A stretch of DNA of 64,000 nucleotides, from the NCBI GenBank assembly GCA_963666485.2, contig CAXXUO010000009.1, positions 320,001 to 384,000 of the forward strand, in the 5' to 3' direction. The DNA comes from Syntrophorhabdaceae bacterium. GTDB lineage: Bacteria; Desulfobacterota; Syntrophorhabdia; Syntrophorhabdales; Syntrophorhabdaceae. A model generated the notes under the pieces. The model ran no database searches, was not told the DNA's origin, and saw nothing but the letters and a program-made list of their open reading frames with translations. The first letter of the stretch is position 1. Each line of letters opens with the position of its first letter. The translations under genes and the position numbers were made by a program. Below, in pieces: positions 13,810 to 55,610 of this stretch.

Positions 13810-13842
13810 CAACCATAATAGTGGCTAAACGTACCCCATCTT

Positions 13843-14214: not shown

Positions 14215-14227
14215 CTTTTTTTACGTT

Positions 14228-36611: not shown

Positions 36612-37322
36612 TCATCTTCCGTCTTTCCGCACTATCCTGACAAGAGCGAATGTGTCAGTCCAATTCAGGCGCAACACGTAATTCTGTCCCGGACCATATT
36701 TTCCGGGCTCCGGTGCATTTCTCACAAGGCGCTGCAACTCGGGAATGTCGTGGAAGGTGCCTAACAATTCACAGCGTACCCGGTCCAGCATACTCCTGGC
36801 ATCAATGAAGGCAACCAATTTTTGAATATAAGACATGCGGACATTCTTTGATTCGATGAGGAAATTGCATTTACTGTCAACGCCAAGAGATACATCGCGG
36901 GGAAACCAGGCGGGTTTCACTTCTATGGCCCGGGGAAATCCCGGCACGATCTCAAGCCGTCCCCTCGCAAGAATACCTCCGGCGAACGGTAAAAAATCCG
37001 AATCACCAAAACTGATATTCCAGTTGTCCATGAATGTTTTGTTTGCATGTACTCTAAGTTTCGAACCTTGTTCAATGAGGTACAGATCTTGCTGGGCCAT
37101 GGGAAACATATCTATGTAGCCTTTGCCCTTTTTAATCCCGTCTTTTTCGGTTATTTTGTAAATATACCGGGAGTAAGGCCTCGTCGGTTCGGTTTCGTTC
37201 GCGAGGCTCTGCATTTCCGATCTCGTCGGAGCGGGGGGTTCCCGGGTTAGCGCCCCGGTACCGGCACAACCGGCGAGTAATATCCCTGACACAGCAATGG
37301 CGAAAAAGAATCGTAGTTTCAT
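36612..37322 (-). CDS. T4SS-cluster lipoprotein of unknown function
   Basis: Start ATG 37322; lipobox LAGC; last gene of the minus-strand cluster. Confidence 0.65.
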   Translation of the reverse strand: MKLRFFFAIAVSGILLAGCAGTGALTREPPAPTRSEMQSLANETEPTRPYSRYIYKITEKDGIKKGKGYIDMFPMAQQDLYLIEQGSKLRVHANKTFMDNWNISFGDSDFLPFAGGILARGRLEIVPGFPRAIEVKPAWFPRDVSLGVDSKCNFLIESKNVRMSYIQKLVAFIDARSMLDRVRCELLGTFHDIPELQRLVRNAPEPGKYGPGQNYVLRLNWTDTFALVRIVRKDGR

Positions 37323-37335
37323 GTGATATCTCCGG

Positions 37336-38496
37336 TTATGGCATAAAGTAGATGAGCACGGGCACACCTTTTTCCATGATCAGAGTTGGTGTCTTTCTTG
37401 CTGAATTCTCCACTTTTTTCGACATTCCCTGGAACATGGCATCCCCGGACGCAAGACCGGCTTCCCTCAAACGATTGTCGTCTTTCGTCTGACCCGTGAC
37501 CGTTGTGCCTGATGTCACTTCTATCGTTGTCGTATCTTTTCTCAGAGCATTCAAGAAAGATGACATTCCCGACAATACACTGCTCGCCACAGTGCCGGCT
37601 ATATCATCATGCCGTATGGTGGAAATAATGCCATCTGATTGATCTATGGACGCAACGTATCCCTTCATAGGGTAATGAGCGTTTTCGGGATTAAGGACCC
37701 CGGAAATTTCGACGTGGAACCTGTTGTCCGTAAAATTAGGGCTTGCCTTCCCTACAATTTTCCAGCCTTTAAGCGGTATCTCGGTGCCCGTTGCAACGAA
37801 TATTGCTTTTGCATCCGACGAGGTGAATGTCCGGTCGATTACGGCTCGGTACGGTCGGTAAAATTGCACCTTCAGCCCCTGTCCGGTATAAGCGGGGCTT
37901 CTTTCCGTTCCGGGCACCTCTTTTTCATTTGGAGCGGATTGTGCCGCGGTATTCACAACCGCGGATGAGCCATGGCTCCCAACGAATCCTCCCGATATCT
38001 TTTGAAAATACATATGTTCCCATGCTTTTTTCCGTGTCTGTTCGTTATCGGTGCTGCTGAGCGAGCCGATCTGTGAATCCATCCCCTCATTGTAGATATT
38101 GGACGTGGTCTTGCCCTTTTTTGCGAAAGACAGTGGGTCACGCTCAGGGACGATCATGCCCGCAAGATCGACGTCCTCTTTTCTCTTTTTCGAGGGCCCC
38201 ACCCTTCCGATATATCCGCCCCTTTCGCTTGCCTTGAGCATCTGCTGTTCCTTCTTGATGGCATCGCCGATCGTACTTTCATCCGACTTCTTCTCGTCAA
38301 CTGCGTACGGGTCCGTCTCTTTGGACCCCGCAACGCCTGCGTTCTTTCTGGCAGCGGTCTTTTTATTTATATCGAGCTGCGACATTTTCATTTTCTTAGA
38401 TCTGTCCATAAGAACCCCTATAGCAAGGGATATGAAGAATGCGGCCGCAATCACGGCAATGGTTATCAATATGGCGGGTTTTGGGAATCTTCTCAT
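37336..38496 (-). CDS. VirB10/DotG/TrbI-like core protein
   Basis: N-terminal TM anchor, charged low-complexity linker, C-terminal beta domain with helical insert and PTLIMEKGVPVLIYF end. Confidence 0.65.
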   Translation of the reverse strand: MRRFPKPAILITIAVIAAAFFISLAIGVLMDRSKKMKMSQLDINKKTAARKNAGVAGSKETDPYAVDEKKSDESTIGDAIKKEQQMLKASERGGYIGRVGPSKKRKEDVDLAGMIVPERDPLSFAKKGKTTSNIYNEGMDSQIGSLSSTDNEQTRKKAWEHMYFQKISGGFVGSHGSSAVVNTAAQSAPNEKEVPGTERSPAYTGQGLKVQFYRPYRAVIDRTFTSSDAKAIFVATGTEIPLKGWKIVGKASPNFTDNRFHVEISGVLNPENAHYPMKGYVASIDQSDGIISTIRHDDIAGTVASSVLSGMSSFLNALRKDTTTIEVTSGTTVTGQTKDDNRLREAGLASGDAMFQGMSKKVENSARKTPTLIMEKGVPVLIYFMP

Positions 38497-39077
38497 ATGC
38501 CGGACTCCCTCCAGATCGGTTTGATTATGTATCGGGAACCCGAGAAAAGGATCGCATTACCGGCTTCGATTTTGGCGACATCAATTGCGTCCTGTTTGTT
38601 ATTGAAGAAAACCGATATGTGCGTGTCTTCCCCTGGCTCTACGGCAAATACAATGTCCCCGAGATCAACAGGTTCTTTTTCATGAAGGCAATAAACGGCC
38701 CTGAGGTTATGGTACGTCTGAAGATACTTATATTCATTCGGCATTATCTCGTTCCATACGCCCCTCGCCTGGGCAAGCCTCTCATTGTCAAAAACAAATG
38801 CGATCACCGAGTCTCCGCCATGCGGTGAAATTACCGGGATCCTTTCCGGCACTTCAAATCGCGCCCTGATATTTTCAGTAAGCGGGTCTTCCGAGGGTAA
38901 TGCCCTTATACCAACTGACAAGGTGTTGATCGCGCGTAGGAATTCGCCGACAGCGTCCATCGTCATCCCCGAGGACCTCTGGCCTTGCTGAGCATTGCTA
39001 AATGACGCCGGCATAAAAAAGGCGAGCACGACGATTGCCAGGAACGATCTGAAGATTGTTTTCATATTCTCTTTCAT
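38493..39077 (-). CDS. Secreted hypothetical protein in T4SS cluster
   Basis: Signal peptide ending SNA; tightly coupled to both neighbours. Confidence 0.6.
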   Translation of the reverse strand: MKENMKTIFRSFLAIVVLAFFMPASFSNAQQGQRSSGMTMDAVGEFLRAINTLSVGIRALPSEDPLTENIRARFEVPERIPVISPHGGDSVIAFVFDNERLAQARGVWNEIMPNEYKYLQTYHNLRAVYCLHEKEPVDLGDIVFAVEPGEDTHISVFFNNKQDAIDVAKIEAGNAILFSGSRYIIKPIWRESGI

Positions 39078-39079
39078 CC

Positions 39080-41815
39080 TTATGATAAATAGCCGTCTGA
39101 ATCTATTTTCCTCATCACGGTATTGATATCTATGGTCCTCCCGATGCTCCCTTCCGGGAACATATCGGCAAGGGCCTCGATGGCCACAGCCTGCGCGCGC
39201 CTTGAAGATATGCCGCGATCCTTCAGGGTCAGTGCAATGTTTTCCCTTAAGTACCGCTCATCCTTGTGCGTGGTGTAGCGCCATCGGCTGCCTGGCGTCT
39301 GAACATTGATAAGAACGCCTTTCCCGAGGTCTTCATTGAGCGCAAGGATCTCTGCATATTTACCCGGATGGAACTTGAGGGATAGGAGGAGCTCACGGTC
39401 CTCATTTTTAAGGCCTAATATTTTGACTATATTATCTATTCCTTCAACCGTCGGGTTGTCCGGCGATATATGCCGCGTGAAAAATTTGTTGGCTGCGGCC
39501 GATATAAAATGCTTTCCCCTTTCAGCGATGTCGAGAATATCCTGCGTGACCAGGTATGTCGCCAACCCGAGGGTCCTTTGCTGCCGAGCATCTTTATCAA
39601 GCACATCGAGGATGGTTTCGTTATTTTTCAGATTATGGAACTCATCATAAACGAACAATTTTGGCCTGTTTTGCACTGCGAGCATCCAGTCGACAGATGC
39701 GGCGCCAAGAAAGGGGGGCATTTCACCCGGCAAATAGATTGCCTTGCGATAGGCAAAATCACGATAGAGGAGCAGCAATAACGCCAGTATTTCCCTTCTT
39801 TCACTGACAAGGCCCATGTGAATGCAAAAAATGTCTCTGTCCACCGAGAAATTGGTCACCCCGTTTAGCAACGAGGCCTGTTCGCCCTGCGCATACAGGT
39901 TAAGGACCCTCCTCATGTCTTCAGCTATCTGCCGGTCCCTTGAATTTGTGTTAATGGCAGGGTCCGACGAAAGCACCCGTATAAAGTCATTGAGCGTCGG
40001 AGTGGCAAGGCATTGCGCCGTTTCAGCGAGCTGAAAATCTTTTCTGTCCAGCGTTGAAAGGAATTTCTTTATATAGTAGTCCCGGTATTCCAGGTAGGTA
40101 TCGAATGAGGGGGCGCCCGCAAAGACCTTTTCCTGGGCCTCATTCGACATTTTGATCGTGCGCACATGGCGTGGTTCTTCCTTGAATAGCATGTCATAGG
40201 CTCTCTTGAGAGTACGTCCCAAAATGGAGAGTGTCTCTTTGGGGACCCTGCCGTCCTCGCTCAGCATAGCCGTGAACACCGCGTTTAAAGATAGTATTTT
40301 GGAACCGGTCGGTTGTTCGAACCCGACCCGCAGATCAAACATATTCACCCGTTTGTCACTGTCGCCGAATTTGACCTGTATGAAACTGCCCCCAAAATTC
40401 GAAACGACAGGTTCATACGAGGACGCTTTTGCCATATCGACAATAACAATGACTGGATCGTCGGCCATGGCACCCGTAATGATGCCGTTCATCAAAACAG
40501 ATTTGCCGCTTCCTGTCGGCCCGATCACCAATCCTGCCCACCTGTTCTGCCGGACACTGAATGGATGCAGCGCGGTTACTCCGCCATGACGATTCCTGAG
40601 CAGCATGGCAGGCCGGGACCGGTCACCCCGGTACATGCCGCGAAGCGGTACAAATTTCATAATGTCATGGCCGAAAATAATATGCGGGTCATAATTCCTC
40701 GTGGCACATCCGGGCAATGATGCCACAAACGCGTTCTCTTTCCGCATCCACTCCGCAAATATTCCCGCCCCGTCCACGGACATGGATACGGCCAGGCGGA
40801 AAGCCTGTATCTTTTCCTGCAGGGACTGAATGCTCGTGTCCCAAATGAGGCAGCTCACGAAACATTTTACGATCTTCCATCCTTCCCGGGCCCGGTCCTC
40901 AAGGAGATCGTCTATCGAAACGATCCTCTCCTTATTATCGATTGCGGCTGATGTTTTTTTCCCGCTGAAGATATTTGCCATCACACGCATCCTGGACAGG
41001 TCCTTCGCTATCGACGCGGCATCTTCACATAGTATTATCGTGTTCAGCACGAGGGGGAAATTGATGTTCTGAAGCATCCTCGACCCACATCCTGCCGGGA
41101 TCGTATTGGGAAGGGAATCCATCACCAGCGTGGCGAAAAAGTGCCGACCGTTCGTCAGATAATAGTCTTTCGCGTAGAAATCCGTGTTAAATATTCTTTT
41201 TCTCAAAGGTAACAGGCCGCCACACTCTGAAAGCGTCATAGAAGGCGCAGGATCACCGGGATTAATTATTCTCGCCAGGTTCTGCATCATCTCGGGCCCG
41301 CTTAAGCCCCGAATATCGTAGCCGAGAGGTATCAGGGTGTTCTTAAACATCGAAGCCGCCTCGTCCAGTTTTCGGTTGCGCTCCAGGAAATCACCCGAAC
41401 CCAGACACCTTTTCTTTTTACCCTCGATGGAGGCCTCGGCGCTGAGCGGCACAATGACAGTGCAATAGAGCGATGTATCGATGATCCCTCCCCGGGATTG
41501 CAGTTCGGCTACATTCTCTTTCGCCATCGAACGGGACAGGGGATCCACGTTTAATCTCGTGTATTCGTCAAGCAAACGGCCCGTGTCCTGATTCACATAC
41601 GTTGTGAACTGGACGAAAACGTTCTGCGCTGTAATATTCTTAAGCATTTCAGAGCATTTATTGACCTCGATATCCATGACCGACCTGTCTATCCCATCAG
41701 CCCCGGCCTGCATTATTTCGAAGCCATACGCCTTTTCAAAGCGTTCCAGGATCAGGTAATTATCTCCGACCATCGTGATCGGTATGCGCCGGTAAAAAGG
41801 AGATGATCTCTGCAT
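39080..41815 (-). CDS. VirB4-family ATPase, DotO/IcmB/TraU-like
   Basis: 911 aa; GPTGSGKS; PKLFVYDEFH Walker B; AETAQCLATPTLND; DARQQR...TQ. Confidence 0.85.
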   Translation of the reverse strand: MQRSSPFYRRIPITMVGDNYLILERFEKAYGFEIMQAGADGIDRSVMDIEVNKCSEMLKNITAQNVFVQFTTYVNQDTGRLLDEYTRLNVDPLSRSMAKENVAELQSRGGIIDTSLYCTVIVPLSAEASIEGKKKRCLGSGDFLERNRKLDEAASMFKNTLIPLGYDIRGLSGPEMMQNLARIINPGDPAPSMTLSECGGLLPLRKRIFNTDFYAKDYYLTNGRHFFATLVMDSLPNTIPAGCGSRMLQNINFPLVLNTIILCEDAASIAKDLSRMRVMANIFSGKKTSAAIDNKERIVSIDDLLEDRAREGWKIVKCFVSCLIWDTSIQSLQEKIQAFRLAVSMSVDGAGIFAEWMRKENAFVASLPGCATRNYDPHIIFGHDIMKFVPLRGMYRGDRSRPAMLLRNRHGGVTALHPFSVRQNRWAGLVIGPTGSGKSVLMNGIITGAMADDPVIVIVDMAKASSYEPVVSNFGGSFIQVKFGDSDKRVNMFDLRVGFEQPTGSKILSLNAVFTAMLSEDGRVPKETLSILGRTLKRAYDMLFKEEPRHVRTIKMSNEAQEKVFAGAPSFDTYLEYRDYYIKKFLSTLDRKDFQLAETAQCLATPTLNDFIRVLSSDPAINTNSRDRQIAEDMRRVLNLYAQGEQASLLNGVTNFSVDRDIFCIHMGLVSERREILALLLLLYRDFAYRKAIYLPGEMPPFLGAASVDWMLAVQNRPKLFVYDEFHNLKNNETILDVLDKDARQQRTLGLATYLVTQDILDIAERGKHFISAAANKFFTRHISPDNPTVEGIDNIVKILGLKNEDRELLLSLKFHPGKYAEILALNEDLGKGVLINVQTPGSRWRYTTHKDERYLRENIALTLKDRGISSRRAQAVAIEALADMFPEGSIGRTIDINTVMRKIDSDGYLS

Positions 41816-41834
41816 TATAATCCCGTTTTTCGGT

Positions 41835-43322
41835 CTAATCGGCAGGCATTCCGCTGTCCTCGATGAATCTCAGGACATCAGGGTCATCCGTATCGGCAGC
41901 CTGCGCCATCGCCCGTAATGCAATTAGTTTCAGTTTTTGATTTTCCAGATAAAGAAGGTAGTAATGCAATCGTGAAAGATCTTTCCATGCCTGGTCCTCG
42001 TAACCGCTATCAATAGCTGCCGGGGCAAGATTTTTCAGCCGGGTCCTGATGCCGGATGCCACCTCCAGTGATGTCCGGGCAAGGACGTAATGCTTGATTG
42101 CCAATTTCTTTCTCACCGCTGATGATTGTCTCGATGCGAGCAGAACCATGGCCCTTTTCATGCTGCCGTCATCGAAGAGGGACACCGGAGCCTTTGCCCG
42201 GGCGAAAGTCTCGTAATTGCGATAATCGCGGAGCAATCTCTGAACTTCGTTTTCTATCGAGGAATACATAGTCGTAATGGCGATCTCTTTCTGCTTTTCT
42301 GCGATCACCAGCCTGTTGACGGCATCGAGCGCGGATTGCACCTTCGACCCTATGATCCTATCGACAGATGCTGCTGTCGCCAGGGAGATCTTTTGAAGGG
42401 AGTCGGTCGATCTTGATATGTATTGCGGGACACTTTGCCCGGCCACGCCATTTACCGTCGATATGATCAATTCTATATCTTTATCTGTCAAAACCACTTT
42501 CGTATTGCCCGACACGGTCTTGCCGAGCACTGCCTTGAGGTATTCACTATTTGATGCTGTGAACTGATTTCCTATCGCATCTCCAACAGACATGTTTCCG
42601 ATGGTTCCCAGTATGCCGAATCCGTCGCGGGCATGCACTGTACACGCGCTAAGTGCTGCCCGGGTATTGCCGGTAACATCCTTCTGCCTTGCCGTAAGCG
42701 AGGACGCCACATCGATCCTGCCGGATAGCCCGGCCATGTGCATCACCAGGTTCGATGCGACCGGCAGGAAACCGGACACCATTGACCGATATTCATTCAC
42801 CTGGCCGGAATAGGTGCCAACAAGGCCCGGGGACTTGAGGAAAACCTGGTAATTTTTGAGGACCGTGGACGTATCATTCCTGTCGAATCCTTTCCGCCTT
42901 AATTCGTTCTGGAGGGTAGTCATAACCGAATTGTTGAGGCTGCCTGTAAAACTGGCAAGGCTCATATCGCCGTTTACGATGCCGGTCTGGGACTTTAGTC
43001 CTTCGTTAACAGCACCGCCAATCATGGATGAAAAATCATTTATGCCCGAAAGATCGCCGGTACCGGCAAAATTGCCGGGCTTATACGAGATGCTCAGCTT
43101 TTGTGACAGGTTGGCTTTTAACTCGCCTGACATAAAGTTTTTTACAAGATTATTGAGGAGAGCCGAAAACTGTGCATAGTTCGTCACCATAATGATAGGT
43201 GAGCATTTAATTGCACATTCCGCCCGGCGGCTGAACAACCCGTAGGAAATAAAAAAAATCACCAGGCCGAAGAATGTCAGAATGCCGATTACCAGAGATT
43301 TTTTTACCCGGAGCCTGTTCAT
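41835..43322 (-). CDS. Secreted or anchored helical protein, paralogue 1 (possible VirB5-like)
   Basis: N-terminal hydrophobic segment; VTNY; C-terminal APAAIDSGYEDQAWKDL shared with the neighbours. Confidence 0.6.
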   Translation of the reverse strand: MNRLRVKKSLVIGILTFFGLVIFFISYGLFSRRAECAIKCSPIIMVTNYAQFSALLNNLVKNFMSGELKANLSQKLSISYKPGNFAGTGDLSGINDFSSMIGGAVNEGLKSQTGIVNGDMSLASFTGSLNNSVMTTLQNELRRKGFDRNDTSTVLKNYQVFLKSPGLVGTYSGQVNEYRSMVSGFLPVASNLVMHMAGLSGRIDVASSLTARQKDVTGNTRAALSACTVHARDGFGILGTIGNMSVGDAIGNQFTASNSEYLKAVLGKTVSGNTKVVLTDKDIELIISTVNGVAGQSVPQYISRSTDSLQKISLATAASVDRIIGSKVQSALDAVNRLVIAEKQKEIAITTMYSSIENEVQRLLRDYRNYETFARAKAPVSLFDDGSMKRAMVLLASRQSSAVRKKLAIKHYVLARTSLEVASGIRTRLKNLAPAAIDSGYEDQAWKDLSRLHYYLLYLENQKLKLIALRAMAQAADTDDPDVLRFIEDSGMPAD

Positions 43323-43325
43323 CGT

Positions 43326-43931
43326 TTACCTGTCTTTTCCAAGGGCGTCCAACATCTTAGCCAGCGACAGGATCCTGAGTTCCTGGGACTCAACCAATCC
43401 TCTTAGATGGGCAATTTTGGTCGCGTCTTTCTGGTTTTGCTCCCGCGATGCAAAATCAAAGGAGGTCGGAGCAAAAGAGGAAAGGGCCAAACTTACTCTG
43501 CTTGCCATGACAAATGTTTTTTTGCCGGCGGTATATAATGTTATGGCGCTTCCCGCCCGGAATGCGCGCCGCTTCGCCAAAACCATTTCCGCCACTGTTG
43601 GGTCTTTGGGCTTTATGCGGAGCGATATTCCCGTGAGGGCATTGGCTCCTTCGGATTCGCCGGTGGAACCCGGCCCCTTGAATGGGTCGGCAGTACCCGG
43701 GGCTTGCAAGATGCTGGCCGCCGATCTTTGCCGGATTATCAATGCGCTGTAATCCTGGAGAAAATCGCAGTATGGCTGCTGAAATGCTGTCACCCACCGG
43801 GCTGCCTTCTGGGCGAGCGTCGCCTCAGAAACGACGGGACAGGGTAGGTCTATCCCTGATAGATCCGGCGCAAAGCCGCACAATACAACCATTGATGTAC
43901 ACAAAACAAAGATTCCGGGACGCATGGTCAT
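43326..43931 (-). CDS. Secreted helical protein, paralogue 2
   Basis: Signal-like N-terminus; FAPTSFDFASREQNQKDA. Confidence 0.55.
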   Translation of the reverse strand: MTMRPGIFVLCTSMVVLCGFAPDLSGIDLPCPVVSEATLAQKAARWVTAFQQPYCDFLQDYSALIIRQRSAASILQAPGTADPFKGPGSTGESEGANALTGISLRIKPKDPTVAEMVLAKRRAFRAGSAITLYTAGKKTFVMASRVSLALSSFAPTSFDFASREQNQKDATKIAHLRGLVESQELRILSLAKMLDALGKDR

Positions 43932-44683
43932 CTTCCTTCCAGGGCATGGCGCATTTCCCCCTGCGACATCACCGCGAGTATTTCCGCCTGAAGCATGGTA
44001 TTGTAATATGTCAGCTTTGCTAGGTCTTTTACGGCCTGGTCGGATTTCCCGGAATCGAACGCCGAAGGACTGAATCCGGATAATTCACCGCGAAACCTCT
44101 CGGCGACATATATGCCCTGGGCGGCGCGCTCGTAGGTCGCAACAGATGCCTGGCTGAATATGTCCCGAAGCTTGAGTGCGGCGAAATCCGCCGTCGAAAA
44201 ATGCTTCATTTTCGCGGTTCCGCCGCCCGGCGCCCCTGCGATAAGGATGGAAACTTCACGGGTTTTTTTCTGGAACTGGGAAAAATCAGAGCCCGTAAGC
44301 GGTAAGCCGAGCGGCGCCTTTGATCGTGCCAGCTCGTTATAATACTTGCCGCTGGCCGTTGAAAAAGCCCCGGTGCTGTTTACCATGTAGTCCGAGATCA
44401 TGCTCTTTATGGATGATGTCATGTCATAGTTCGTGAATGTGATGCCCTTTGTATTGAGTTTTCCGGCCTCCAGCTTCATTTTGACTTCTTCATTCCAGAC
44501 TGACTGTATCTTTTCGGTAATAACCTGGGTAACCATTGTCTGGATCAGAGGCATTAACGTCTGGTAATTTGTCACTGTGACGGCAGTCCCGTAAGCACTT
44601 GTAGCGAGAATACAGAGAAATAAAATTGCGCACAGAATTTTACCAGTCCTGGTCGAAATACATCTGAGCATTGTTCTCCTCAT
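43928..44683 (-). CDS. Secreted helical protein, paralogue 3
   Basis: Signal peptide; VTNY; FSPSAFDSGKSDQAVKDL; SD GGAGG. Confidence 0.6.
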   Translation of the reverse strand: MRRTMLRCISTRTGKILCAILFLCILATSAYGTAVTVTNYQTLMPLIQTMVTQVITEKIQSVWNEEVKMKLEAGKLNTKGITFTNYDMTSSIKSMISDYMVNSTGAFSTASGKYYNELARSKAPLGLPLTGSDFSQFQKKTREVSILIAGAPGGGTAKMKHFSTADFAALKLRDIFSQASVATYERAAQGIYVAERFRGELSGFSPSAFDSGKSDQAVKDLAKLTYYNTMLQAEILAVMSQGEMRHALEGR

Positions 44684-44719
44684 GATTTTCCCCTCCGCAC
44701 TAAATAAATAGCATCAGCC

Positions 44720-45811
44720 TTATTCATTCATGAAACGGGTAAGATCGTTCGAAACCCTTCGCGCATCCAGTTCGTCCACGGCTCCCGAAATAACGAGACT
44801 CTTCAGGCTCTGGTTAAGCGTCCATCCCACCGCTCTACTTCTCTGTTCGTCGCGGAGCCGATCATATTGGCCTGCAAGAATAAGCTCGCGTGTATTTAAT
44901 TGCTGTACGTCCAGGTATTCCGTCGCGAGGAGCAGTTCACCGGGTTTTGAGCTCGATCTTGCGGCGGGTACGAGAACCTGCACCATGATGGCGAGGAGCA
45001 CGTCAGTGAGTTCCTGGATGACCCATGACTGTTTTTCGATGGGGAACATGGATGCTATGCGCGAAGGCACCTGGGTGGCCATCAGCGTGTGGATGGTCGT
45101 GAATACAATATGACCTGTCTTGGCGGCCTGGATTGCGGCGAGGGACGTCTCGGGGTCCCTTACCTCTCCCACAAGGATAAGGTCCGGCCGCTGGCGCATC
45201 GCGGCCCGAAGCGCCTTTTCGAAGGACAACGTCGTCGTACCGACCTCGCGCTCTATTATGTTGCCCAACCCGTCCGGTATATCATACTCGATCGGATCCT
45301 CGATCGTGACGCAATTGAGGGCCCTTGATCGAAGAAGAAATGCAATTATCGACGCAAGGGTTGTTGATTTTCCGCTCCCGGTCGGCCCGGCTATGAATAT
45401 GATGCCTCCTGCCGAACTATCGAGGATGAGCTTCACAAGCTTGTCCGGGATGCCAAGTTTCGCGGGTTCCGGTTCTACGGACCTCAGGCGCCGCATAACG
45501 ATCGCGACCCCTTTCTTTGACAGGCAAATGTTCACGCGAAAACGGAACGCTCTCTTTTCTCGTGCGCTCCCTGTATGCTTTGTATACGAGAGATCTTTTT
45601 CTTCCCTGTCATACAGCTGCGACCGGGCACCCGGGATCTTCAATATACGTTCTATCGCGTTGTCCAGTTCATAGCCCTCAGGAGGCCGCATACAGGCCTT
45701 GGTCATCCGCCCGTGTATTCTCAGGAAAGCGGGGCTTTCGGACTGTATATATATGTCGGAAGCGTTTTCCCTGATGGCCTCGTCAATTATCTCATCGAAG
45801 AAATTTTCCAT
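44720..45811 (-). CDS. PilT-family traffic ATPase, DotB/TraJ-like
   Basis: GPTGSGKST, TIEDPIEY, LVGEVRD and TGHIVFTTIHT; lacks the PilT AIRNLIRE motif. Confidence 0.85.
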   Translation of the reverse strand: MENFFDEIIDEAIRENASDIYIQSESPAFLRIHGRMTKACMRPPEGYELDNAIERILKIPGARSQLYDREEKDLSYTKHTGSAREKRAFRFRVNICLSKKGVAIVMRRLRSVEPEPAKLGIPDKLVKLILDSSAGGIIFIAGPTGSGKSTTLASIIAFLLRSRALNCVTIEDPIEYDIPDGLGNIIEREVGTTTLSFEKALRAAMRQRPDLILVGEVRDPETSLAAIQAAKTGHIVFTTIHTLMATQVPSRIASMFPIEKQSWVIQELTDVLLAIMVQVLVPAARSSSKPGELLLATEYLDVQQLNTRELILAGQYDRLRDEQRSRAVGWTLNQSLKSLVISGAVDELDARRVSNDLTRFMNE

Positions 45812-45829
45812 AATTACAGTGCGCTTTAC

Positions 45830-46153
45830 CTACCTGCAGCGCAGCGAATCCGTACCGACAAGATATGTCAGGTATCTTCTCAAAATACTTGCACGGCAAT
45901 AGCCTCGCTGTTTTATCTCCTCCTTTCTTTTTACCTGCGCAAAAATAACGAGGACGACCGAGATTGACACACCGGAAATGCCGACAAAGATTCCCAACAT
46001 GTGCGATATATAGGAACAAAGCCCTGAAAGGCCATTCCCGAGCATTGCCGGGCAGATCGAGATGATGAGGTCCTCCATGGTCAAGTTCAGCCTCGGGACC
46101 AGGATGGAACCGTTGATACCCTGGTAGTTATGCCTCTTCCCGGAACCTATCAT
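45830..46153 (-). CDS. Small two-TM protein, VirB3/IcmT-like by size and position
   Basis: Start ATG 46153 overlaps the upstream stop (ATGA); 107 aa; hydrophobic pair then basic tail. Confidence 0.5.
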   Translation of the reverse strand: MIGSGKRHNYQGINGSILVPRLNLTMEDLIISICPAMLGNGLSGLCSYISHMLGIFVGISGVSISVVLVIFAQVKRKEEIKQRGYCRASILRRYLTYLVGTDSLRCR

Positions 46154-46536
46154 CCTGCCGCACTCTTCATCGTTGCCTTGACAATCCCCAGAATAAAGGA
46201 AAGAGACACGAGGCATCCCCCGAATGCCACTTTCTTCCAGGCGCCCTGGGCGCCCTGCGGGTTGTTGTCCCTGTTTGCCATGGAAATGAAACCCCAGACA
46301 ATAAGGCCTGTACCAGCGCAAAAAGATATTGCCAGCAGTCCGTTCATCAGCATTGTGGACAAGCTTGTCAGAAATGACTCGGCGGTATTCGATCCTTCAC
46401 CCCATGTGACGCTGAACGAATCAGCTCCTCCTGTCCGTGAGGTCAGACAGAAAAACAGCAGCGATACGGGCAAAATACGGCTGAACAGGGGACATGCCCG
46501 CATCACTTTCTTAACCATGCCGAACTTCTCAATCAT
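46150..46536 (-). CDS. Pilin-like membrane protein (VirB2 / IcmD-DotP-like)
   Basis: Start ATG 46536 with SD AAGGAG; leader, then two hydrophobic helices around NRDNNPQG. Confidence 0.6.
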   Translation of the reverse strand: MIEKFGMVKKVMRACPLFSRILPVSLLFFCLTSRTGGADSFSVTWGEGSNTAESFLTSLSTMLMNGLLAISFCAGTGLIVWGFISMANRDNNPQGAQGAWKKVAFGGCLVSLSFILGIVKATMKSAAG

Positions 46537-47014
46537 CCGTGTTTCTCCTTTCATATTGTGTGATATCTTCAAACAATGCTCTTTCCTTTTCCGATTGAAA
46601 ATAGATCTCCCCGATCTTAAGTTTCAGGCCGCCGTATATGTATCGTTCAACACTTATCTTGAGATACGATATGAGATAGCCCACAAGTGTGAGGCTCATA
46701 ACAAGTTGAATAATAATAAGAATTCCCACACCGTGGCCCCCTGAGCAGACCCGCGATATTATGTTGTTGGTTCCGGCACCAAAAGCTATGAGAAGCCCGA
46801 ACAGGCCTGCCAGTTTCAGCCACGACTTTACCTTGTTCTGACGGGACATCAATCCTGCGCATTCATCGATACTAAACTCATGCGCCCTGCCGCCCGCAAT
46901 TTCGAGGATGAGCATTTCAGCGTGTTCACCTGTACGCGCGCAGGCAATGACTTTCTTTTGTACGGGGAAAGGTATTTTATCGTCATATTTGCCCGGCGAA
47001 TATCTGATCAACAT
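46529..47014 (-). CDS. Two-TM hypothetical protein in T4SS cluster
   Basis: 161 aa, two hydrophobic segments, coupled to neighbours. Confidence 0.55.
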   Translation of the reverse strand: MLIRYSPGKYDDKIPFPVQKKVIACARTGEHAEMLILEIAGGRAHEFSIDECAGLMSRQNKVKSWLKLAGLFGLLIAFGAGTNNIISRVCSGGHGVGILIIIQLVMSLTLVGYLISYLKISVERYIYGGLKLKIGEIYFQSEKERALFEDITQYERRNTDD

Positions 47015-47017
47015 CTC

Positions 47018-47656
47018 TTAGTCTATCCGGATCGGCTGCCGTCCAAACTTCTTGTAAAATGACAGGGCGTCGTCGCATGTTCCCTTGAACGCTTTGCCAA
47101 TAACGGCCCATCTCCCGCCTTCACCGTAGGGCGCGATCGTGAGAAATACATCGTCCGGTTTTTTTGTATTGCTGAGAAAGAGAAAGGCCTCGCTCTCCGT
47201 AAAAAAGGACTCGATCAGAAAGTAACAGAAGTTTGCCCTGTCTTTCTTCAGCCAGTCGCCCCCGGCGTCGTCGCTGACAAACTGCGGAGGGGCCACGATC
47301 TTCCAGGTAAGCCCCGGGGCCGAATACATGCTTCCGTCACCGCTTATCTTTGCGGGATTGTATACAAGTCGAACCTGGGCGGGCATGATCGCACCGCCTT
47401 TTATCAATTCAAGATACAGAAGCTGATCGCGGTATTTTCGGACAAAATCCCGCAGCATCTCATCCATTTCCGCCCTGCACAGGGCCATGCCCTCCCGCCT
47501 GCCCTCCTGCCTGCCCTCGTCGCGGGCCGCAAGGACCGATTCCTTTTCGATGGCGTCCGACGATATCTGGCGGATCGCAGGAGAACATCCCCACGATGTC
47601 ATAAGGATCACGATCACTAAGATAACTGTGGCTAGAAGATGACCGATATTTTTCAT
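47018..47656 (-). CDS. Lipoprotein, DotC/TraI-like core with possible C-terminal SPOR-like domain
   Basis: Lipobox SWGC; LYLELIKGGAIMPAQV...ISGDG...KIVAPPQF...W resembles the DotC C-terminal pattern. Confidence 0.55.
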   Translation of the reverse strand: MKNIGHLLATVILVIVILMTSWGCSPAIRQISSDAIEKESVLAARDEGRQEGRREGMALCRAEMDEMLRDFVRKYRDQLLYLELIKGGAIMPAQVRLVYNPAKISGDGSMYSAPGLTWKIVAPPQFVSDDAGGDWLKKDRANFCYFLIESFFTESEAFLFLSNTKKPDDVFLTIAPYGEGGRWAVIGKAFKGTCDDALSFYKKFGRQPIRID

Positions 47657-47663
47657 GAATACC

Positions 47664-47930
47664 TCATTTGGTCACATTGTCTCTCGCGTGCCTGCTTTCA
47701 TTTCTGCCCGATCTCTGCTCATACTGATATGAAAAATCGGAGGAAAACGTTTTTACGAAGGCGATCTGCCGCGCCAGAACATTTATGACTTCCGACGATG
47801 ATACCGAAAGAGGCGGTACAACCTGCCCTTCTTTTTGCCCGGCCCACAAAGCATCCGGGGTGACCAGGATCAATGCGGTCAGAAAAACATGAGCGAAACA
47901 AACTCTATTTGTATGAAAAAATTTTCCCAT
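47664..47930 (-). CDS. Small secreted protein in T4SS cluster
   Basis: 88 aa with signal-like segment; fills the gap in the operon. Confidence 0.45.
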   Translation of the reverse strand: MGKFFHTNRVCFAHVFLTALILVTPDALWAGQKEGQVVPPLSVSSSEVINVLARQIAFVKTFSSDFSYQYEQRSGRNESRHARDNVTK

Positions 47931-48765
47931 CCGCTATCCTCCGTACCGTAATTTCATGCCGGCGTGAGCCGATCACGCTTGTCCCGCTCCCCAGATCTAT
48001 CCAGAACTCGGCATTGCCGACAGGACTTACCTTGCCGGCGATCATAAAGACGTACATATCGGGCTTCGTCAGCTTCATCATGCGCAGGAACGGGCGTGAA
48101 TCAAGCGTGATCAGCGAAGGTGACCGGCCTTCGAGAAGAATATCTTCCGCCGAGCCCTTTTCGGGTAGACGCCCGGTGGTGATCACGCGGACCATTGCGT
48201 CCGTCGCTGACGCAAGATCATCAGCGCCATGCCGTTTTACATTGACGGTAAGGTCGGCTTCCCCCGACGCTGCGTCTTCTACCAGGAGATAATGATGCGG
48301 AAGGGAACCGCCGTCTTTCTTTTCAAACACGATCAGATTTGTTGTTTTGAACTCCTTTATGGGAAAAATGACAAGGGAGTTATCTTTTATATCGATACTG
48401 AATTTTTCCCGGGCCCCGATTGCGACATCATCGCCGGAAAAGGGGAAAGGCAGGTTTAAAACGGTTCCGTACCCGTATGCAAGACGCAATCTTGGTACCA
48501 GTCCAGCGACCTCTTGCACGTCAATTATTTTCGTCCGCGCTAATTCCCTGTCTTTTTCCATGATCGGTTTCAGGCGTCTCACCTTATCCTTCATTTCCAT
48601 TACGTCCTTTTCCGACAGATCGAACGGCGGGACGATAATAGGGTCTTCCGGAAGGTGTCGTTGCTGCTGCTGTTTCTCCGGCTCGGGTGGCTTATCCGGC
48701 GCGGCATCAGCCGGCAGCTGGCTCAGAAAAACGGACAATGTAAAGGCCAAAAGGGTTTTCCACAC
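47905..48765 (-). CDS. VirB9/DotH (IcmK)-like periplasmic core protein
   Basis: GTG start with SD AAGGAG; signal peptide; PRLRLAYGYGTVLNLPFP...TNLIV. Confidence 0.6.
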   Translation of the reverse strand: MWKTLLAFTLSVFLSQLPADAAPDKPPEPEKQQQQRHLPEDPIIVPPFDLSEKDVMEMKDKVRRLKPIMEKDRELARTKIIDVQEVAGLVPRLRLAYGYGTVLNLPFPFSGDDVAIGAREKFSIDIKDNSLVIFPIKEFKTTNLIVFEKKDGGSLPHHYLLVEDAASGEADLTVNVKRHGADDLASATDAMVRVITTGRLPEKGSAEDILLEGRSPSLITLDSRPFLRMMKLTKPDMYVFMIAGKVSPVGNAEFWIDLGSGTSVIGSRRHEITVRRIADGKIFSYK

Positions 48766-49390
48766 TGCGCACTCCTTTATACAGCTTTATTTCATACATC
48801 TTGGTCTTGATATCGGCGTTGGCCGCTTCCTCGCCAACGACACGTACCGCGTTTAACCGTACCGCTACGAGAATGACGGCCTGTTTGCCGTTCATCTTGG
48901 CATCCTTAAGATTGTGCCATTCGGCTGTCACGACCAGTTTCTGGTCTGCCAGTGACTTGAGGTAATTGTCACGGTAAGGTTCATAAAATGCCTTGAAAGA
49001 TGCCGGATCGAAATGGCGCGACATACGGGTCATCCTGCCGGCAAGATCATCTTTCGATTTCACTTCAACATAGGTCCATGCGAGAATATCTTTGATAGCA
49101 TCTTTGCAGAAGATCTCAAGCTCCGGCCAGTATATTTTGTCCGGGTCGTCAACACGGATCAGCGACGGGCGGCCCGTTGCATCCATGAATACGATCTTAT
49201 CCTTCCCCTTGCCCACCGCAACGATCACGATCGATGCAGCCACGATCATCATGGATAATGCCAGCATCGCGCAAGGCAGTATGATCAGGGCGGTCGACGA
49301 AAATTTGAGACCTTTGAAGATCCCTATTTCAATGGCGAGCGCTTCGCTGTTGCTTTTGGCTTGTGTGACGCTTTTTTCTTCTTTCACCAC
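48707..49390 (-). CDS. VirB8/TrbF/DotI-like bitopic protein
   Basis: One TM helix, periplasmic domain, C-terminal ENPFGLYI motif; probable GTG start near 49390. Confidence 0.7.
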   Translation of the reverse strand: MVKEEKSVTQAKSNSEALAIEIGIFKGLKFSSTALIILPCAMLALSMMIVAASIVIVAVGKGKDKIVFMDATGRPSLIRVDDPDKIYWPELEIFCKDAIKDILAWTYVEVKSKDDLAGRMTRMSRHFDPASFKAFYEPYRDNYLKSLADQKLVVTAEWHNLKDAKMNGKQAVILVAVRLNAVRVVGEEAANADIKTKMYEIKLYKGVRSVENPFGLYIVRFSEPAAG

Positions 49391-49447
49391 ATGGTCACCT
49401 TTTTCGCTATATGTTAAATAGCAGCGTTCAAAAGAAAGGGGTTCCAC

Positions 49448-49711
49448 ATGACCGAAACGATCTTAAAATTCTTGAATAACGCCCAATCGACCGTTTCACC
49501 CGTTATACCCGTAATAGGAGTCTTTCTCATAATACGGGGTCTCATCCGGCTGGCGCATGGCAACGAGGCGGCAAAGGGCGGCAGCGGGGGCGGCAAGCTC
49601 ATTATCATCGGGTCCTGCCTGACGTGTTATGAAACGATCTCATCGGTCGTTATCAGTACCCTGCAGAGCTGCGGCCTTGATGTAGGCAATGTGATCAGGG
49701 TCAGCTGGTAA
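49448..49711 (+). CDS. Small membrane protein, IcmC/DotE/TraQ-like
   Basis: IGVFLIIRGLIRLA...GGGKLIIIGSCL helical hairpin; SD-like AAGGG. Confidence 0.55.
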   Translation: MTETILKFLNNAQSTVSPVIPVIGVFLIIRGLIRLAHGNEAAKGGSGGGKLIIIGSCLTCYETISSVVISTLQSCGLDVGNVIRVSW

Positions 49712-49768
49712 TGTAAGCTTCACCCGCGGTTTTGGATGACGGCCCTGTCAATCATGAGACGGCCGGCC

Positions 49769-51445
49769 TTACCTTTTGACATATTTGATAAGCCTCATTT
49801 CGCTGACGTTCCCTTTTGGTTGGACAAACCTGGTCTTGAAGCGCCTTATAACGTCCCCGGCGAATATATAACCTTCGCCTGTTGCAAGTTCTGCCAGGTC
49901 TCGCATTTCGATCCGGCTGCCCTTCTGAAAGGCATATGTCCCGTCCCAGTTGCCGAGATTTTCCGTTAACCTGCCATCGCTGCGGATGTTCGGCATCATA
50001 AAGAAGGATTCGCCCGCCCTTTCCCCCAGGAACCTGGCTGTATCCGTATCTTCAATCTTCATGACAATCTTATAGTTCGTATTGCCTATCAATCGCTTCG
50101 CATCCGTTTCAGAAGCTTTGAACAGGGACGCCAGTTCCTGGACCGAGATGATGACCCCGAAACCAAGAGACCTTCCCTGCGCAAGAACCGTGTCAAAACC
50201 TTCAACCGCATACGACCCATATTCATCGGCGATGAGCGTGAAAGGGACGTCCGGCCGGCGCCTTTTCACGTCACGGCGGATCCTTTCATAATCGCCTTCC
50301 ACTTCTGTCCCCAGCGCGGTTGTGAGGGCGATCTTAAAAGCATTGAGGGTGAGCCTCCCCAACGCCTGAAGGGTTGACAGTGAATATGACAATGACGGCA
50401 GCAGGACAATGAGTATCCGGCTGTTCGAGACCGCGTCGACCATGTCTATCTCGGGAGCATCGGTATCGAATATCCGATTGAATGTACCGGCAAGAAGGTC
50501 AAGGGGCGCTCCCCATTGCTGCACGAAAAACCCGTACTGACGCAACGCTTCGGCCGCAGCCGGTGATATTCTCCCCCCTCCAGCCGCGTTGCGGTACTCT
50601 TGCCAACCCGGAAGTTCGCCGAGCAATGCCCTGAGCCGGGCTTTCACCGGGGTCCCGTTATCGTATAATGGATACCTGTCGTCGGCTTCCAGGGCGATCA
50701 CGGAGTCGAACGAAAGGGAACGGCGGACTTCTGACGGAGTAAGTACGTAATCGCCGAACACGTCCGGATTGTCCCGCCTGTATACCAACTGAGCAAGCAC
50801 CGCCTTCATGAGTATCTTTCCGCGTTCCTGCCAGTAGATCTGGTCACCTTGAGCCTGTTTCAAAAATCCCGCCATGATCTCAGCGAGAAAATCAGCATCG
50901 CCATGGGTCATGAAGTTGAATGTATGTGACTGTGTCGGATTGAGGAAATTGAGGACGAGCAGATCCTCAAGCCGGTCGCAGTCTTCCACTATTTCGTACA
51001 GTACTGCATACGTATCGGTCACATCTGATTTTCCATCGATGAAACAAAATCCCCCTCCCAGCATCATGATGGACTCCGCCACGCTTCGAATTGCCGTCGT
51101 TTTGCCCGATCCGGTCGTACCTATGAGCATTCCGTGGCGGGTTATCTCGGAAACCGGCAGTAAGACGGGTATTCCGCACTCGTCATCTCCAAGAGAAATT
51201 GCGGGATCTTCGCGTATGCGCATAAAAACCGGTCCGGGAGAATTGTCCGAGGCCATGAGCTGAATGATCGCACCCGCTAAAAATACGCACAGGGCGAAAA
51301 AGCAACTGAAATAAGCTGCTGCCACGGTGAACACCGTCATAACGAACGGGTTGACCCAGCGGATCATGAGCCAGGTGCGGGGGCGCAGCTTTGAGGCGGG
51401 TGTGATCCGTGCGCGTTCGGCCCTGTCGTTGATGGATCGTGACAT
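49769..51445 (-). CDS. Type IV coupling protein, DotL/IcmO/TrbC-like
   Basis: N-terminal TM helices; HGMLIGTTGSGKT; GFCFIDGK; DEYGSYAVEGF...AQGRSLGF; NTNYKIVMKIED; probable ATG 51445. Confidence 0.85.
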   Translation of the reverse strand: MSRSINDRAERARITPASKLRPRTWLMIRWVNPFVMTVFTVAAAYFSCFFALCVFLAGAIIQLMASDNSPGPVFMRIREDPAISLGDDECGIPVLLPVSEITRHGMLIGTTGSGKTTAIRSVAESIMMLGGGFCFIDGKSDVTDTYAVLYEIVEDCDRLEDLLVLNFLNPTQSHTFNFMTHGDADFLAEIMAGFLKQAQGDQIYWQERGKILMKAVLAQLVYRRDNPDVFGDYVLTPSEVRRSLSFDSVIALEADDRYPLYDNGTPVKARLRALLGELPGWQEYRNAAGGGRISPAAAEALRQYGFFVQQWGAPLDLLAGTFNRIFDTDAPEIDMVDAVSNSRILIVLLPSLSYSLSTLQALGRLTLNAFKIALTTALGTEVEGDYERIRRDVKRRRPDVPFTLIADEYGSYAVEGFDTVLAQGRSLGFGVIISVQELASLFKASETDAKRLIGNTNYKIVMKIEDTDTARFLGERAGESFFMMPNIRSDGRLTENLGNWDGTYAFQKGSRIEMRDLAELATGEGYIFAGDVIRRFKTRFVQPKGNVSEMRLIKYVKR

Positions 51446-55141: not shown

Positions 55142-55185
55142 CACCAAGGCTTTATTGCCTCCCCCAATCCAGAAACAAAGGCAAA

Positions 55186-55451: not shown

Positions 55452-55610
55452 GCCTTTAGCCTTTCGCCTTTCGCCTTTCGCCTCACCCTTTTTCCTGTCT
55501 TGCCCGGCGCCTCAAATCATGGTAGATTTTCACAGCTTTTCGAGATCTGCACATCGACCGTGGAATCCCTGATGAAGCAGGCATCGTTCACATCATCGTA
55601 AGGAGCAATC

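Follow-up and report, generated by a model that had tools for sequence, protein, structure and literature searches.

The window analysed here is a stretch of 64,000 nucleotides from a Syntrophorhabdaceae bacterium (GenBank assembly GCA_963666485.2, contig CAXXUO010000009.1; G000:C9:320001-384000 in our notation), and our subject is a gene cluster at positions 36612-51445 that encodes components of a type IV secretion system (T4SS) of the IVB, or Dot/Icm-like, lineage. An initial annotation had described 17 tightly packed open reading frames (ORFs) at this locus, 16 of them on the minus strand, and the ORF listing and ortholog comparison gave the same layout: 17 closely packed genes, all on the minus strand except a single plus-strand one (49448-49711, 87 amino acids (aa)), with small intergenic gaps, several overlaps, and all 17 frames open in the window. 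Gene starts and gene reality were settled by ortholog comparison, which placed the start of the coupling protein at the Met at 51445 and that of the last lipoprotein at 37322, and replaced a longer listed ORF by a 107-aa gene (45830-46153) whose ATG at 46153 overlaps the stop of a 140-aa gene. The window's own genome (G000) comprises 3.77 Mb in 10 contigs and is 99.14% complete; all other genomes compared are draft metagenome-assembled genomes (MAGs). Ratios of nonsynonymous to synonymous divergence (dN/dS) were computed with NG86, as medians over pairs with dS <1.5 and, separately, for the pair G000-G011. The features are as follows:

49769..51445, minus strand: type IV coupling protein (T4CP) of the DotL/TrbC (IcmO) type, 558 aa from the conserved start
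49448..49711, plus strand: two-helix hairpin membrane protein, pilin-like (VirB2/TraQ-R class), 87 aa, two hydrophobic segments
48707..49447, minus strand: DotI/IcmL-VirB8-like bitopic inner-membrane protein (Pfam DotI 4e-4 in the window)
47905..48765, minus strand: DotH/IcmK (VirB9 superfamily)-like secreted protein, presumed part of the outer-membrane core, weak matches
47664..47930, minus strand: 88-aa secreted protein with a signal-like N-terminus, about 90 aa in 10 orthologs, the fastest-evolving gene
47018..47656, minus strand: lipoprotein, 212 aa, with an invariant lipobox Cys, a long helix and a C-terminal SPOR-like (peptidoglycan-binding type) domain
46529..47014, minus strand: 161-aa membrane protein with a hydrophobic core, conserved in 14 orthologs
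46150..46572, minus strand: pilin-like protein by topology (signal sequence and two hydrophobic helices), about 130 aa in orthologs
45830..46153, minus strand: 107-aa small membrane protein; orthologs of 106-117 aa align from residue 57 of the listed ORF
44720..45811, minus strand: PilT-family hexameric ATPase in the DotB/TraJ role (Pfam T2SSE 3.7e-48)
44684..44719, no strand: insertion hot-spot between the PilT-like gene and the first helical paralog, 36 bp in the window
43928..44683, minus strand: secreted helical protein, paralog 1, 251 aa, dN/dS 0.06-0.09
43326..43931, minus strand: secreted helical protein, paralog 2, 201 aa, dN/dS 0.18-0.24
41835..43322, minus strand: secreted or anchored all-alpha protein, paralog 3, 495 aa (AlphaFold2 model with pLDDT 77, entirely helical)
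39080..41815, minus strand: VirB4-class ATPase, very divergent, nearest known relatives TraU/DotO
38493..39077, minus strand: 194-aa periplasmic protein with a signal sequence, conserved in 10 orthologs
37336..38496, minus strand: VirB10/DotG-like protein (N-terminal anchor, low-complexity linker, C-terminal TrbI-like domain), weak matches
36612..37322, minus strand: lipoprotein, 236 aa from a conserved Met, conserved lipobox LAGC, last gene of the operon

Two further ORFs look gene-like in the ORF list and overlap or adjoin real genes on the opposite strand. The plus-strand ORF at 46130-46744 was rejected because ortholog lengths range from 160 to 360 aa and the frame is not conserved, and the 64-aa minus-strand ORF at 49414-49608 because its conservation among orthologs is only partial.

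ATPases and envelope components

The three ATPases proposed initially were each recognised by Pfam and NCBIfam, the T4CP also by a PDB match, and all three support the proposed IVB lineage, the VirB4-like one less decisively; the DotI- and DotH-like proteins support it weakly. The T4CP has an N-terminal membrane anchor and ATPase domains without a C-terminal tail, matches Pfam TrwB_AAD_bind and TraG-D_C and NCBIfam TrbC_conju (2e-60), and has DotL (6sz9, 2e-61, residues 104-569) as its only PDB match. It is about 30% identical to coupling proteins in 4072 plasmid records, some of them annotated as IcmO, and its motif DEYGxYAVEGF..AQxRSLGF aligns with plasmid DotL; the motifs originally quoted for the cluster (DEYGSYAVEGF..AQGRSLGF, PKLFVYDEFH, NPFGLY) are all present in the sequence. 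It is the only T4CP in the G000 genome, and its dN/dS is 0.07-0.08.

The VirB4-like ATPase is recognised at a greater distance, with a Pfam match to P-loop_TraG (4e-8) and NCBIfam matches to TraC-F-type (1.5e-23, 82.6 bits) and VirB4_CagE (1.3e-16), all far below cut-offs; no TraU/DotO model was seen among the NCBIfam matches. On plasmids it best matches the genes that occupy the TraU/DotO position of type IVB secretion system (T4BSS) clusters in Pseudomonas, Acinetobacter and Piscirickettsia (blastp 2.8e-19 to a TraU-position and 5.5e-15 to a DotO-position protein, 22% identity), and its YDEFH(N) motif aligns with the same motif in both. The family is rare, with only 32 clusters among 5.8 billion proteins, and the gene has a dN/dS of 0.06-0.07. 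The third ATPase (dN/dS 0.06-0.10) matches the NCBIfam models for the PilT family (5.5e-75, 252.7 bits), DotB (4.9e-39, 134.5 bits) and TraJ (1.8e-38, 132.5 bits), and scores lower on VirB11 (5e-14, 51.9 bits).

For the VirB8/9/10-shaped proteins of the initial annotation we obtained weak matches only, with a DotI/VirB8 match above the cut-off in one ortholog and the remainder below. That ortholog, from genome G003, matches both DotI (1.4e-6) and VirB8 (1.3e-5) above the Pfam cut-off. In the window, the true start of the DotI/VirB8-like protein is probably about 20-30 codons downstream of the listed GTG. Its NPFGLY tail, invariant in 8 orthologs, had been taken as a IVA-style feature that made the system look mosaic. 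This explanation is unneeded: the protein scores about equally on the DotI and VirB8 Pfam models, so a deep and divergent member seems a better description of it than an insert of IVA origin.

Orthologs of the DotH-like protein match DotH_IcmK (6e-5 and 8e-4) and CagX (2.6e-4), all below the Pfam cut-off, and in a language-model look-up (Atlas) 22 of 30 matches at 0.90-0.92 carry DotH_IcmK, with CagX at 0.87. Local HMM and hhalign comparisons, made against two annotated T4BSS plasmid clusters, aligned it with plasmid DotH at E 0.01 over 147 columns. The VirB10-like protein matches TrbI in 3 of 4 orthologs (3e-4 to 0.03, below the Pfam cut-off) and is collinear with the C-terminus of plasmid DotG (hhalign E 0.08 over 157 columns; hmmsearch 0.0056). 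A complex prediction for the DotH-like protein with the VirB10-like C-terminus scored 0.00 and gave no verdict.

Both proposed lipoproteins were borne out, by the lipobox LAGC in the 236-aa protein and an invariant GC in the 212-aa protein. In the AlphaFold2 model of the latter (pLDDT 74), the C-terminal domain aligns with the RlpA SPOR domain in VIA-align (Z 9.1, rmsd (root-mean-square deviation) 1.8 A, 69 residues; next best Z 6.6), and Foldseek returned nothing at E 0.001 or better. Marginal matches to the protein in the DotC position of a plasmid cluster (hmmsearch 1e-3, tblastn 0.005, hhalign E 0.001) suggest that it is possibly related to DotC, in descriptions of which a SPOR-like domain is absent. 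Neither lipoprotein of the cluster gave a DotD signal. The 236-aa lipoprotein, with 25-54% identity among orthologs and dN/dS 0.21, has no family match.

Two proteins of the cluster appear to be built as a signal plus hairpin, like VirB2-type pilins. The 87-aa hairpin protein is 84-87 aa long in 13 orthologs (dN/dS about 0.08-0.16), with a weak T4SS_pilin match (0.0047) in one ortholog, and the second (46150..46572; dN/dS 0.14-0.17) has weak matches to Maff2 (2.4e-4) and DUF6750 (0.027), also in one ortholog. The 161-aa membrane protein (dN/dS 0.15-0.18) aligns with TraQ only at hhalign E 0.0036. The 107-aa gene has a dN/dS of 0.10 (versus G007) and the 88-aa gene one of 0.54-0.56; neither the 88-aa nor the 194-aa protein has a family match in Pfam, NCBIfam or ortholog Pfam searches, and the 161-aa and 107-aa membrane proteins likewise belong to no recognised family. 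The 251-, 201- and 495-aa proteins are paralogs, with common N- and C-terminal stretches, cross-matches, and profile matches (P0067-P0070). The largest belongs to a family with only 29 representatives among 1.84 billion proteins; Foldseek and VIA-align returned only generic helical bundles for its model (best Z 9.9, below the meaningful level for helical models), and a weak Atlas lead to TraW-like proteins (0.81) is accompanied by an hhalign E of 0.64 to plasmid TraW.

DNA-processing genes and the coupling protein

As first reported, the cluster contains nothing recognisable as a relaxase, primase, integrase or replication gene, nor as DotM, IcmS or IcmW. The description of the system as relaxase-less holds for the locus and the whole genome: searches for six relaxase Pfam families (PF03432, PF08751, PF03389, PF07514, PF01076 and PF02486) gave 0 matches each in G000, with MOBC and unknown families outside the search, and positive controls were matched in control genomes for each of the six. 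No att-like direct repeats were found at the cluster borders. The stretch from 32 to 56 kb is free of recombinase genes, and none lies less than 20 kb from the cluster; the single Phage_integrase gene of the window is at 12579-13466, near an AAA gene (AAA_2) that we take to be of the ClpX/HslU type.

The T4CP itself is altered in a way that may bear on its substrate. In G000 it has 0 residues past the ATPase domain, versus 102-175 extra residues in 10 of 10 outgroup T4CPs, and the tailed forms (the G003 sister type and more distant homologs) measure 657-733 aa. Because the tails of studied coupling proteins bind relaxosome or adaptor proteins, this loss fits an uncoupling from the original substrate. 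The T4CP is under the strongest constraint, which argues that a cytoplasmic substrate may still be passed to the channel.

One explanation, which we consider unlikely, is that the cluster is a chromosomal helper: the machine would conjugate the DNA of unlinked mobilisable elements that bring a NikA-type accessory protein, a MOBP relaxase and an origin of transfer (oriT), and the chromosome would supply only the mating channel and the coupling protein. T4CPs are the DNA-substrate receptors of conjugation systems, NikA and NikB form the IncI relaxosome, and the T4CP is here the best-conserved gene (dN/dS 0.07). MOBP relaxase domains (PF03432) occur in 8 of the 20 Syntrophorhabdus genomes, on contigs other than that of the cluster, and a 303-aa relaxase frame is common to four of them (G018, G012, G006 and G008). 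A NikA-like gene, a 300-aa MOBP relaxase and a resolvase stand in a row in G018 (L069, contig G018:C7, 9556-13016), and could be a small element that the chromosomal T4SS is able to mobilise; a sister system on a plasmid-like contig of G003, described below, also speaks for a helper. Against this explanation, PF03432 is absent from 12 of the 20 genomes, including G000, where none of the six relaxase families was matched, and several others with intact clusters, and the T4CP tail kept in all 10 outgroups has been lost. A helper role alone would also leave unexplained the host-level purifying selection in relaxase-free species.

Conservation, loss and missing parts in the genus

The flanks of the cluster are ordinary chromosome. 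One carries genes for a pseudouridine synthase, a small HATPase protein and a triple-PAS sensor, the other genes for two TupA-like binding proteins, a permease, an ABC ATPase and ProS, with arg genes, LeuS, EF-Tu and tRNAs farther out; the PAS sensor and tupA named initially as flanks thus recur in the Pfam matches and the tupA-like binding proteins. The cluster has a guanine-plus-cytosine (GC) content of 0.49-0.52 versus 0.55-0.58 around it, which we counted as a sign of possible foreign origin.

The T4CP was detected in all 20 Syntrophorhabdus genomes, a count that takes in G000, a fragment in G014 and a divergent copy in G003, and in 0 of 21 genomes from other genera of the family and order. 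VirB4 was detected in 14 of the 20 and in 2 of 401 sampled genomes of the phylum, both of this genus and hence in 0 of 399 outside it; related genomes are not independent observations, in these counts or in the correlations below. A scan of genome contigs with the T4CP alignment recovered 17 loci, all from the same genus, and the corresponding VirB4 scan recovered 0 relatives in genome contigs and one weak match (20% identity) in metagenome contigs. Distant homologs at 37-53% identity (VirB4 37-44%, T4CP 43-53%; P0031, P0032, P0038, P0039, P0100, P0101 and P0113) come from MAG contigs labelled Thermofilum or Thermofilaceae (archaea) and Syntrophomonadaceae (Bacillota) and from an isolate labelled Thermosulfurimonas, with VirB4 and T4CP on the same contig in two cases; they may reflect mis-binning or a real spread across phyla.

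Within the genus, 14 crown-group loci have an identical gene order, with the T4CP abutting tupA, or proS where the tup operon is absent, and each genome holds one cluster copy and one T4CP. The dN of the T4SS genes correlates with that of the adjacent proS (Pearson 0.91-0.99 over 6-21 non-independent pairs), which fits vertical descent. It is extremely improbable, in our judgement, that the cluster is a still-mobile integrative element with an unrecognised relaxase and integrase. Its GC content below that of the surroundings, its several genes without a family, and the presence of the family in MAGs labelled as other phyla would suit such an element; set against these are the same chromosomal neighbour in 14 loci, a divergence that tracks proS, the single copy and single T4CP per genome, and the absence of border repeats and of any recombinase between 32 and 56 kb.

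Frames remain open in at least 11 other species, even where protein identity falls to 35-40%. Median dN/dS is 0.06-0.24 for 15 genes, compared with 0.04-0.12 for the flanking tup and proS genes, and 0.06-0.26 between G000 and its near relative G011 (0.54 for the 88-aa gene), ratios that are rough because dS is 0.8-1.6 for many pairs, near saturation. Open frames over 15 kb at such dS are in themselves a sign of constraint. The location conserved in the genus, the purifying selection and the lack of a linked relaxase agree with what had been proposed as signs of domestication.

Because the DNA-processing genes were lost, the chromosomal place is fixed and the cluster is kept intact by selection, it probably serves the host cell in some contact-dependent task. 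Taken together, we find it reasonably probable that the cluster is an exapted, strongly reduced, functional T4SS of the IncI/Dot-Icm lineage (mating-pair formation class MPF-I, type IVB). Besides the roughness of the ratios, losses in relatives and missing or poorly matched parts weigh against this reading.

The losses indicate that the system is dispensable: it has become pseudogenised in G002 and has been deleted from G003, half of it is missing from G012, and other genomes are probably affected as well. In G002, the closest relative, frameshifts or stops interrupt seven genes and VirB4 is in five pieces, with 4.4 kb of flank free of either. Everything past residue 65 of the first helical paralog is gone in G012, inside a contig. 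VirB4 was not found in 6 of the 20 genomes. One is G012; in G005, G015 and G019 a contig end interrupts the cluster; G001 is 66% complete; and in G014 (94% complete) no more of the cluster than a fragment of the T4CP was found, at the end of a contig. In G003, whose ProS is 93% identical to that of the window, an empty site (L067, G003:C10:42000-61999, 13800-17386) holds tupA1, then a gene for a 599-aa PAS-histidine kinase-receiver protein, then a HATPase gene, with both the T4SS and the window's PAS sensor absent.

The same genome carries a collinear T4SS at 25-57% protein identity on a 92-kb contig (C9; L068, L032, L014 and L033), which we rejected as an ortholog of the window's system given this divergence beside a 93% identical ProS and its location elsewhere. 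Around the system lie genes that G000 lacks, for a DnaA-like ATPase, ParA, three ParB_N proteins, DnaB, two type IA topoisomerases, an SLT transglycosylase, helicases (one of them of the DEAD type) and a secretin, and the contig also encodes an SMC-like ATPase. The T4CP of this system is set apart from the rest by 13 kb of metabolic genes, and no relaxase family was recognised on the parts read. It is probably a plasmid or integrative element, judging from these genes, and a sister lineage on such a plasmid-like contig shows that the family is, or was, mobile.

As for missing parts, tblastn with two DotA/TraY queries at E 0.01 found nothing in the G000 genome, and a crude hydropathy scan of the cluster products gave at most three hydrophobic segments each, with no polytopic VirB6/DotA/TraY-like protein among them. 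A lytic transglycosylase, DotM, DotN and IcmS/W were not found, the DotM, DotN and IcmW searches having low sensitivity for these fast-evolving proteins, with queries from a plasmid Dot/Icm system; DotF, DotK, DotU and IcmF were not found either. The core-component assignments depend on weak matches: family profiles of the DotI-, DotH- and VirB10-like proteins did not find a solved T4SS subunit in the PDB, and a 13-sequence VirB4 profile did not find solved VirB4 or DotO. The window holds no candidate substrate, effector or effector-immunity pair. Finally, no type IV pilus genes lie beside the window's cluster, and the PAS sensor adjoins it instead.

This last absence reflects a left flank that varies by subclade. 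In G000 and G011 the PAS sensor follows the last lipoprotein; its place is taken in seven other species (G018, G017, G016, G009, G004, G013 and G008) by a module of about 10 type IV pilus genes. The module comprises genes for a secretin, a PilB-like ATPase, a T2SSF platform protein, a PilT-like ATPase and two prepilins (157 and 357 aa), along with a lipoprotein-like gene and two unknown ones, in a layout that recalls the IncI thin-pilus operon. Examples beside the last T4SS gene are:

L037, 3565-13966: pilus module
L034, 1179-11594: pilus module
L042, 2547-12972: pilus module

We infer that the window subclade lost this module, one more missing part. The label "miniaturised" given initially is thus in part particular to the window subclade, seven relatives having the adjoining module. 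The linked module, the two pilin-like hairpins, the three secreted helical paralogs, and a host belonging to a syntrophic group could also point to a surface organelle only, that is, a pilus or adhesin for aggregation with partner cells without substrate translocation. We regard this as very unlikely: coupling proteins are unneeded for pilus production in studied systems, and the T4CP is among the most constrained genes here, kept even where VirB4 was not found.

The same losses could mark a stranded conjugation relic, the second option of the initial annotation, in which a non-functional integrated element slowly erodes and its conservation is a time lag. The G002 pseudogenes, the clean absence in G003, the half-missing cluster of G012 and the five more genomes in which VirB4 was not found would fit, as would the lost pilus module, the truncated T4CP, and the missing VirB6/DotA-like protein and transglycosylase. 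We nonetheless judge a relic improbable. All 17 frames are open in the window, as are those of at least 11 other species at identities down to 35-40%; dN/dS is 0.06-0.26 for 16 of the 17 genes, including along the G000-G011 path, similar to housekeeping neighbours; and neutral decay over a dS of about 1 would wreck 15 kb of frames, as in G002. An exapted, functional system is thus mostly favoured, as the domesticated machine first proposed, with the qualification that G002, G003 and G012 show it to be dispensable.

Possible mechanism, comparisons and meaning

If the cluster is an exapted and functional T4SS, its history may have begun with an IncI-like module (T4BSS plus type IV "thin" pilus), from a rare, divergent lineage that would still circulate on mobile DNA in anaerobic communities, entering the chromosome beside tupA/proS in the ancestor of the genus. 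The module would have shed its replication, partition, relaxosome and integration genes and then been inherited vertically under purifying selection, with further reduction in the window subclade, where the pilus module is gone, and erosion in G002 and G003.

How the machine works can probably be read from the roles of its families, and we infer its assembly, activity, substrate and target. The tail-less DotL-type coupling ATPase would select a cytoplasmic substrate, and the VirB4-like and PilT/DotB-like ATPases would power assembly and transport. The DotI/VirB8-like protein and the small hairpin proteins would form the inner-membrane platform, and the DotH/VirB9-like and VirB10-like proteins with the two lipoproteins, one of them tethered to peptidoglycan via its SPOR-like domain, the envelope core. 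Pilin-like hairpins and the three secreted helical paralogs would make up the surface part, and the machine would export its substrate to a neighbour cell on contact. Our best guess is that the substrate is a protein, and as second choice the DNA of relaxase-bearing mobilisable elements acting in trans.

A bolder extension, to which we give a low probability, is that the minimal IVB machine and the ancestral pilus formed a syntrophy organelle, in which the pilus would dock obligate partners (methanogenic archaea or other bacteria) and the T4CP would feed in host proteins, and occasionally DNA. If so, this would be a secretion system for metabolic partnership, and not for infection, killing or plasmid spread, and the homologs on Thermofilum- and Bacillota-labelled contigs would reflect exchange of the system within consortia.

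The type IVB systems known so far are large, with about 25 or more parts, and come from IncI-type plasmids or from intracellular pathogens; in one recent case such a system kills bacteria. PMC4027160 describes the MPF-I class as having a type IV pilus and a pair of pilin-like proteins, a PilT-like ATPase and a distant VirB4 (TraU), together with numerous orphan components. The cluster resembles the Tra/Trb system of the IncI1 plasmid R64 in its DotL/TrbC coupling protein, TraJ-type ATPase and two small pilin-like proteins, more tentatively in a TraU-like VirB4 and TraM/TraN/TraO-like (DotI/DotH/VirB10) proteins, and, in seven sister species and the G003 variant, in an adjoining pilus module (secretin, PilB-like ATPase, platform, prepilins). 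It differs in lacking the NikA/NikB relaxosome, primase, exclusion and replication genes; TraY (DotA), TrbA (DotM), TraW, TraX, TraP and TraV are unrecognisable in it. R64 has 16 conserved MPF-I profiles and many more genes, compared with 17 genes in 15 kb here, and, unlike R64, the cluster is chromosomal and vertically inherited, with subunits whose profiles miss all solved homologs.

Conjugation machines turned into host tools are well known (Dot/Icm, the VirB systems of pathogens, ComB and X-T4SS), and Dot/Icm is the classic case of an exapted MPF-I system. Like the cluster, the Dot/Icm system of Legionellales has this ATPase lineage and is relaxase-less and chromosomal, and it serves its host, as the cluster probably does. 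It differs in size, with about 27 components as given in PMC9519443, compared with 17 genes here. The cluster lacks the DotM/DotN/IcmS/IcmW/LvgA coupling complex and the DotL tail, and DotA, DotF, DotK, DotU and IcmF were not found; its host is a free-living anaerobe, for which a eukaryotic target is not implied.

Within the account of PMC9519443, the kib T4BSS of Pseudomonas putida IsoF mediates contact-dependent killing of bacteria, and is, like the cluster, a chromosomal T4BSS that does not serve plasmid transfer, acting between prokaryotes. That account describes a 66.9-kb, 61-gene island with an integrase and an effector-immunity pair, rare and recently acquired (PMC9519443), whereas the cluster is old and genus-wide, with no integrase or effector-immunity pair in the cluster's vicinity within the window. 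In relatives, the hot-spot that separates the PilT-like gene from the first helical paralog holds toxin-antitoxin and Fic genes, whose relevance here is only a lead. It spans 36 bp in the window and 0.4 to >8 kb in relatives, where it carries PIN-Phd and Gp49/HTH_37 pairs, TPR-CHAT proteins, a PfkB kinase, an autotransporter, a 374-aa Fic/DUF4172 protein common to five species, and an ORF that is RelE-like by eye and has no Pfam family; the G003 variant has a topoisomerase IA there. The loci are:

L020, 8386-10394: hot-spot
L021, 8357-10225: hot-spot
L015, 3912-10242: hot-spot
L016, 2607-10258: hot-spot

That these toxin-antitoxin and Fic genes encode substrates of the machine is likewise no more than a lead.

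Helicobacter ComB, for DNA uptake, and the Xanthomonas X-T4SS, for killing, are relaxase-less conjugation derivatives of comparable gene number, and differ from the cluster in belonging to the VirB/D4 (MPF-T) lineage. ComB is without a coupling protein, and the cluster keeps one under strong constraint; X-T4SS effectors have a recognisable domain and lie beside immunity genes, and none such was seen in the cluster.

Literature searches on T4BSS in Desulfobacterota, Syntrophales, Smithella and Deltaproteobacteria, and on T4SS in Syntrophorhabdus, found no description of this system. What appears new is its degree of reduction (17 genes, a tail-less T4CP, and unrecognisable DotA/TraY, DotM and adaptors), its depth of divergence, its syntrophic anaerobe host, and the presence of mobile, fixed and eroding forms within one genus. 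A IVB-lineage system that works, or at least survives selection, with 17 genes would offer a natural minimal version for structural and mechanistic work, and the genus, with a mobile sister, fixed chromosomal and losing lineages side by side, a dated example of exaptation. Its hosts are free-living syntrophic anaerobes in tight consortia, where contact-dependent transfer of protein or DNA is essentially unstudied, and the cluster is a lead to such exchange. The family is rare (5.8 billion proteins contain 32 VirB4 clusters) and profiles of solved T4SS parts do not pick up its subunits, so standard detectors may miss systems of this kind.

Some minor observations concern the regulation and surroundings of the cluster. 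Promoter and terminator scans of the cluster were at chance level. The PAS sensor gene (35090-36556) adjoins the cluster in G000 and G011 alone. Its product combines three PAS domains with a Cys-rich tail at its end (LPICASCKKIRNDQGYW...HGYCPEC), and Pfam recognised neither a kinase nor an output domain in it. On the other side, the tupC-like ABC ATPase gene and proS are separated by a gap that contains a tandem array (55156-55464). The array consists of about 7 units of 44 nucleotides (88-nucleotide double units, up to 98-100% identical), each holding GGATTCC...GGAATGACGG palindromic stretches.

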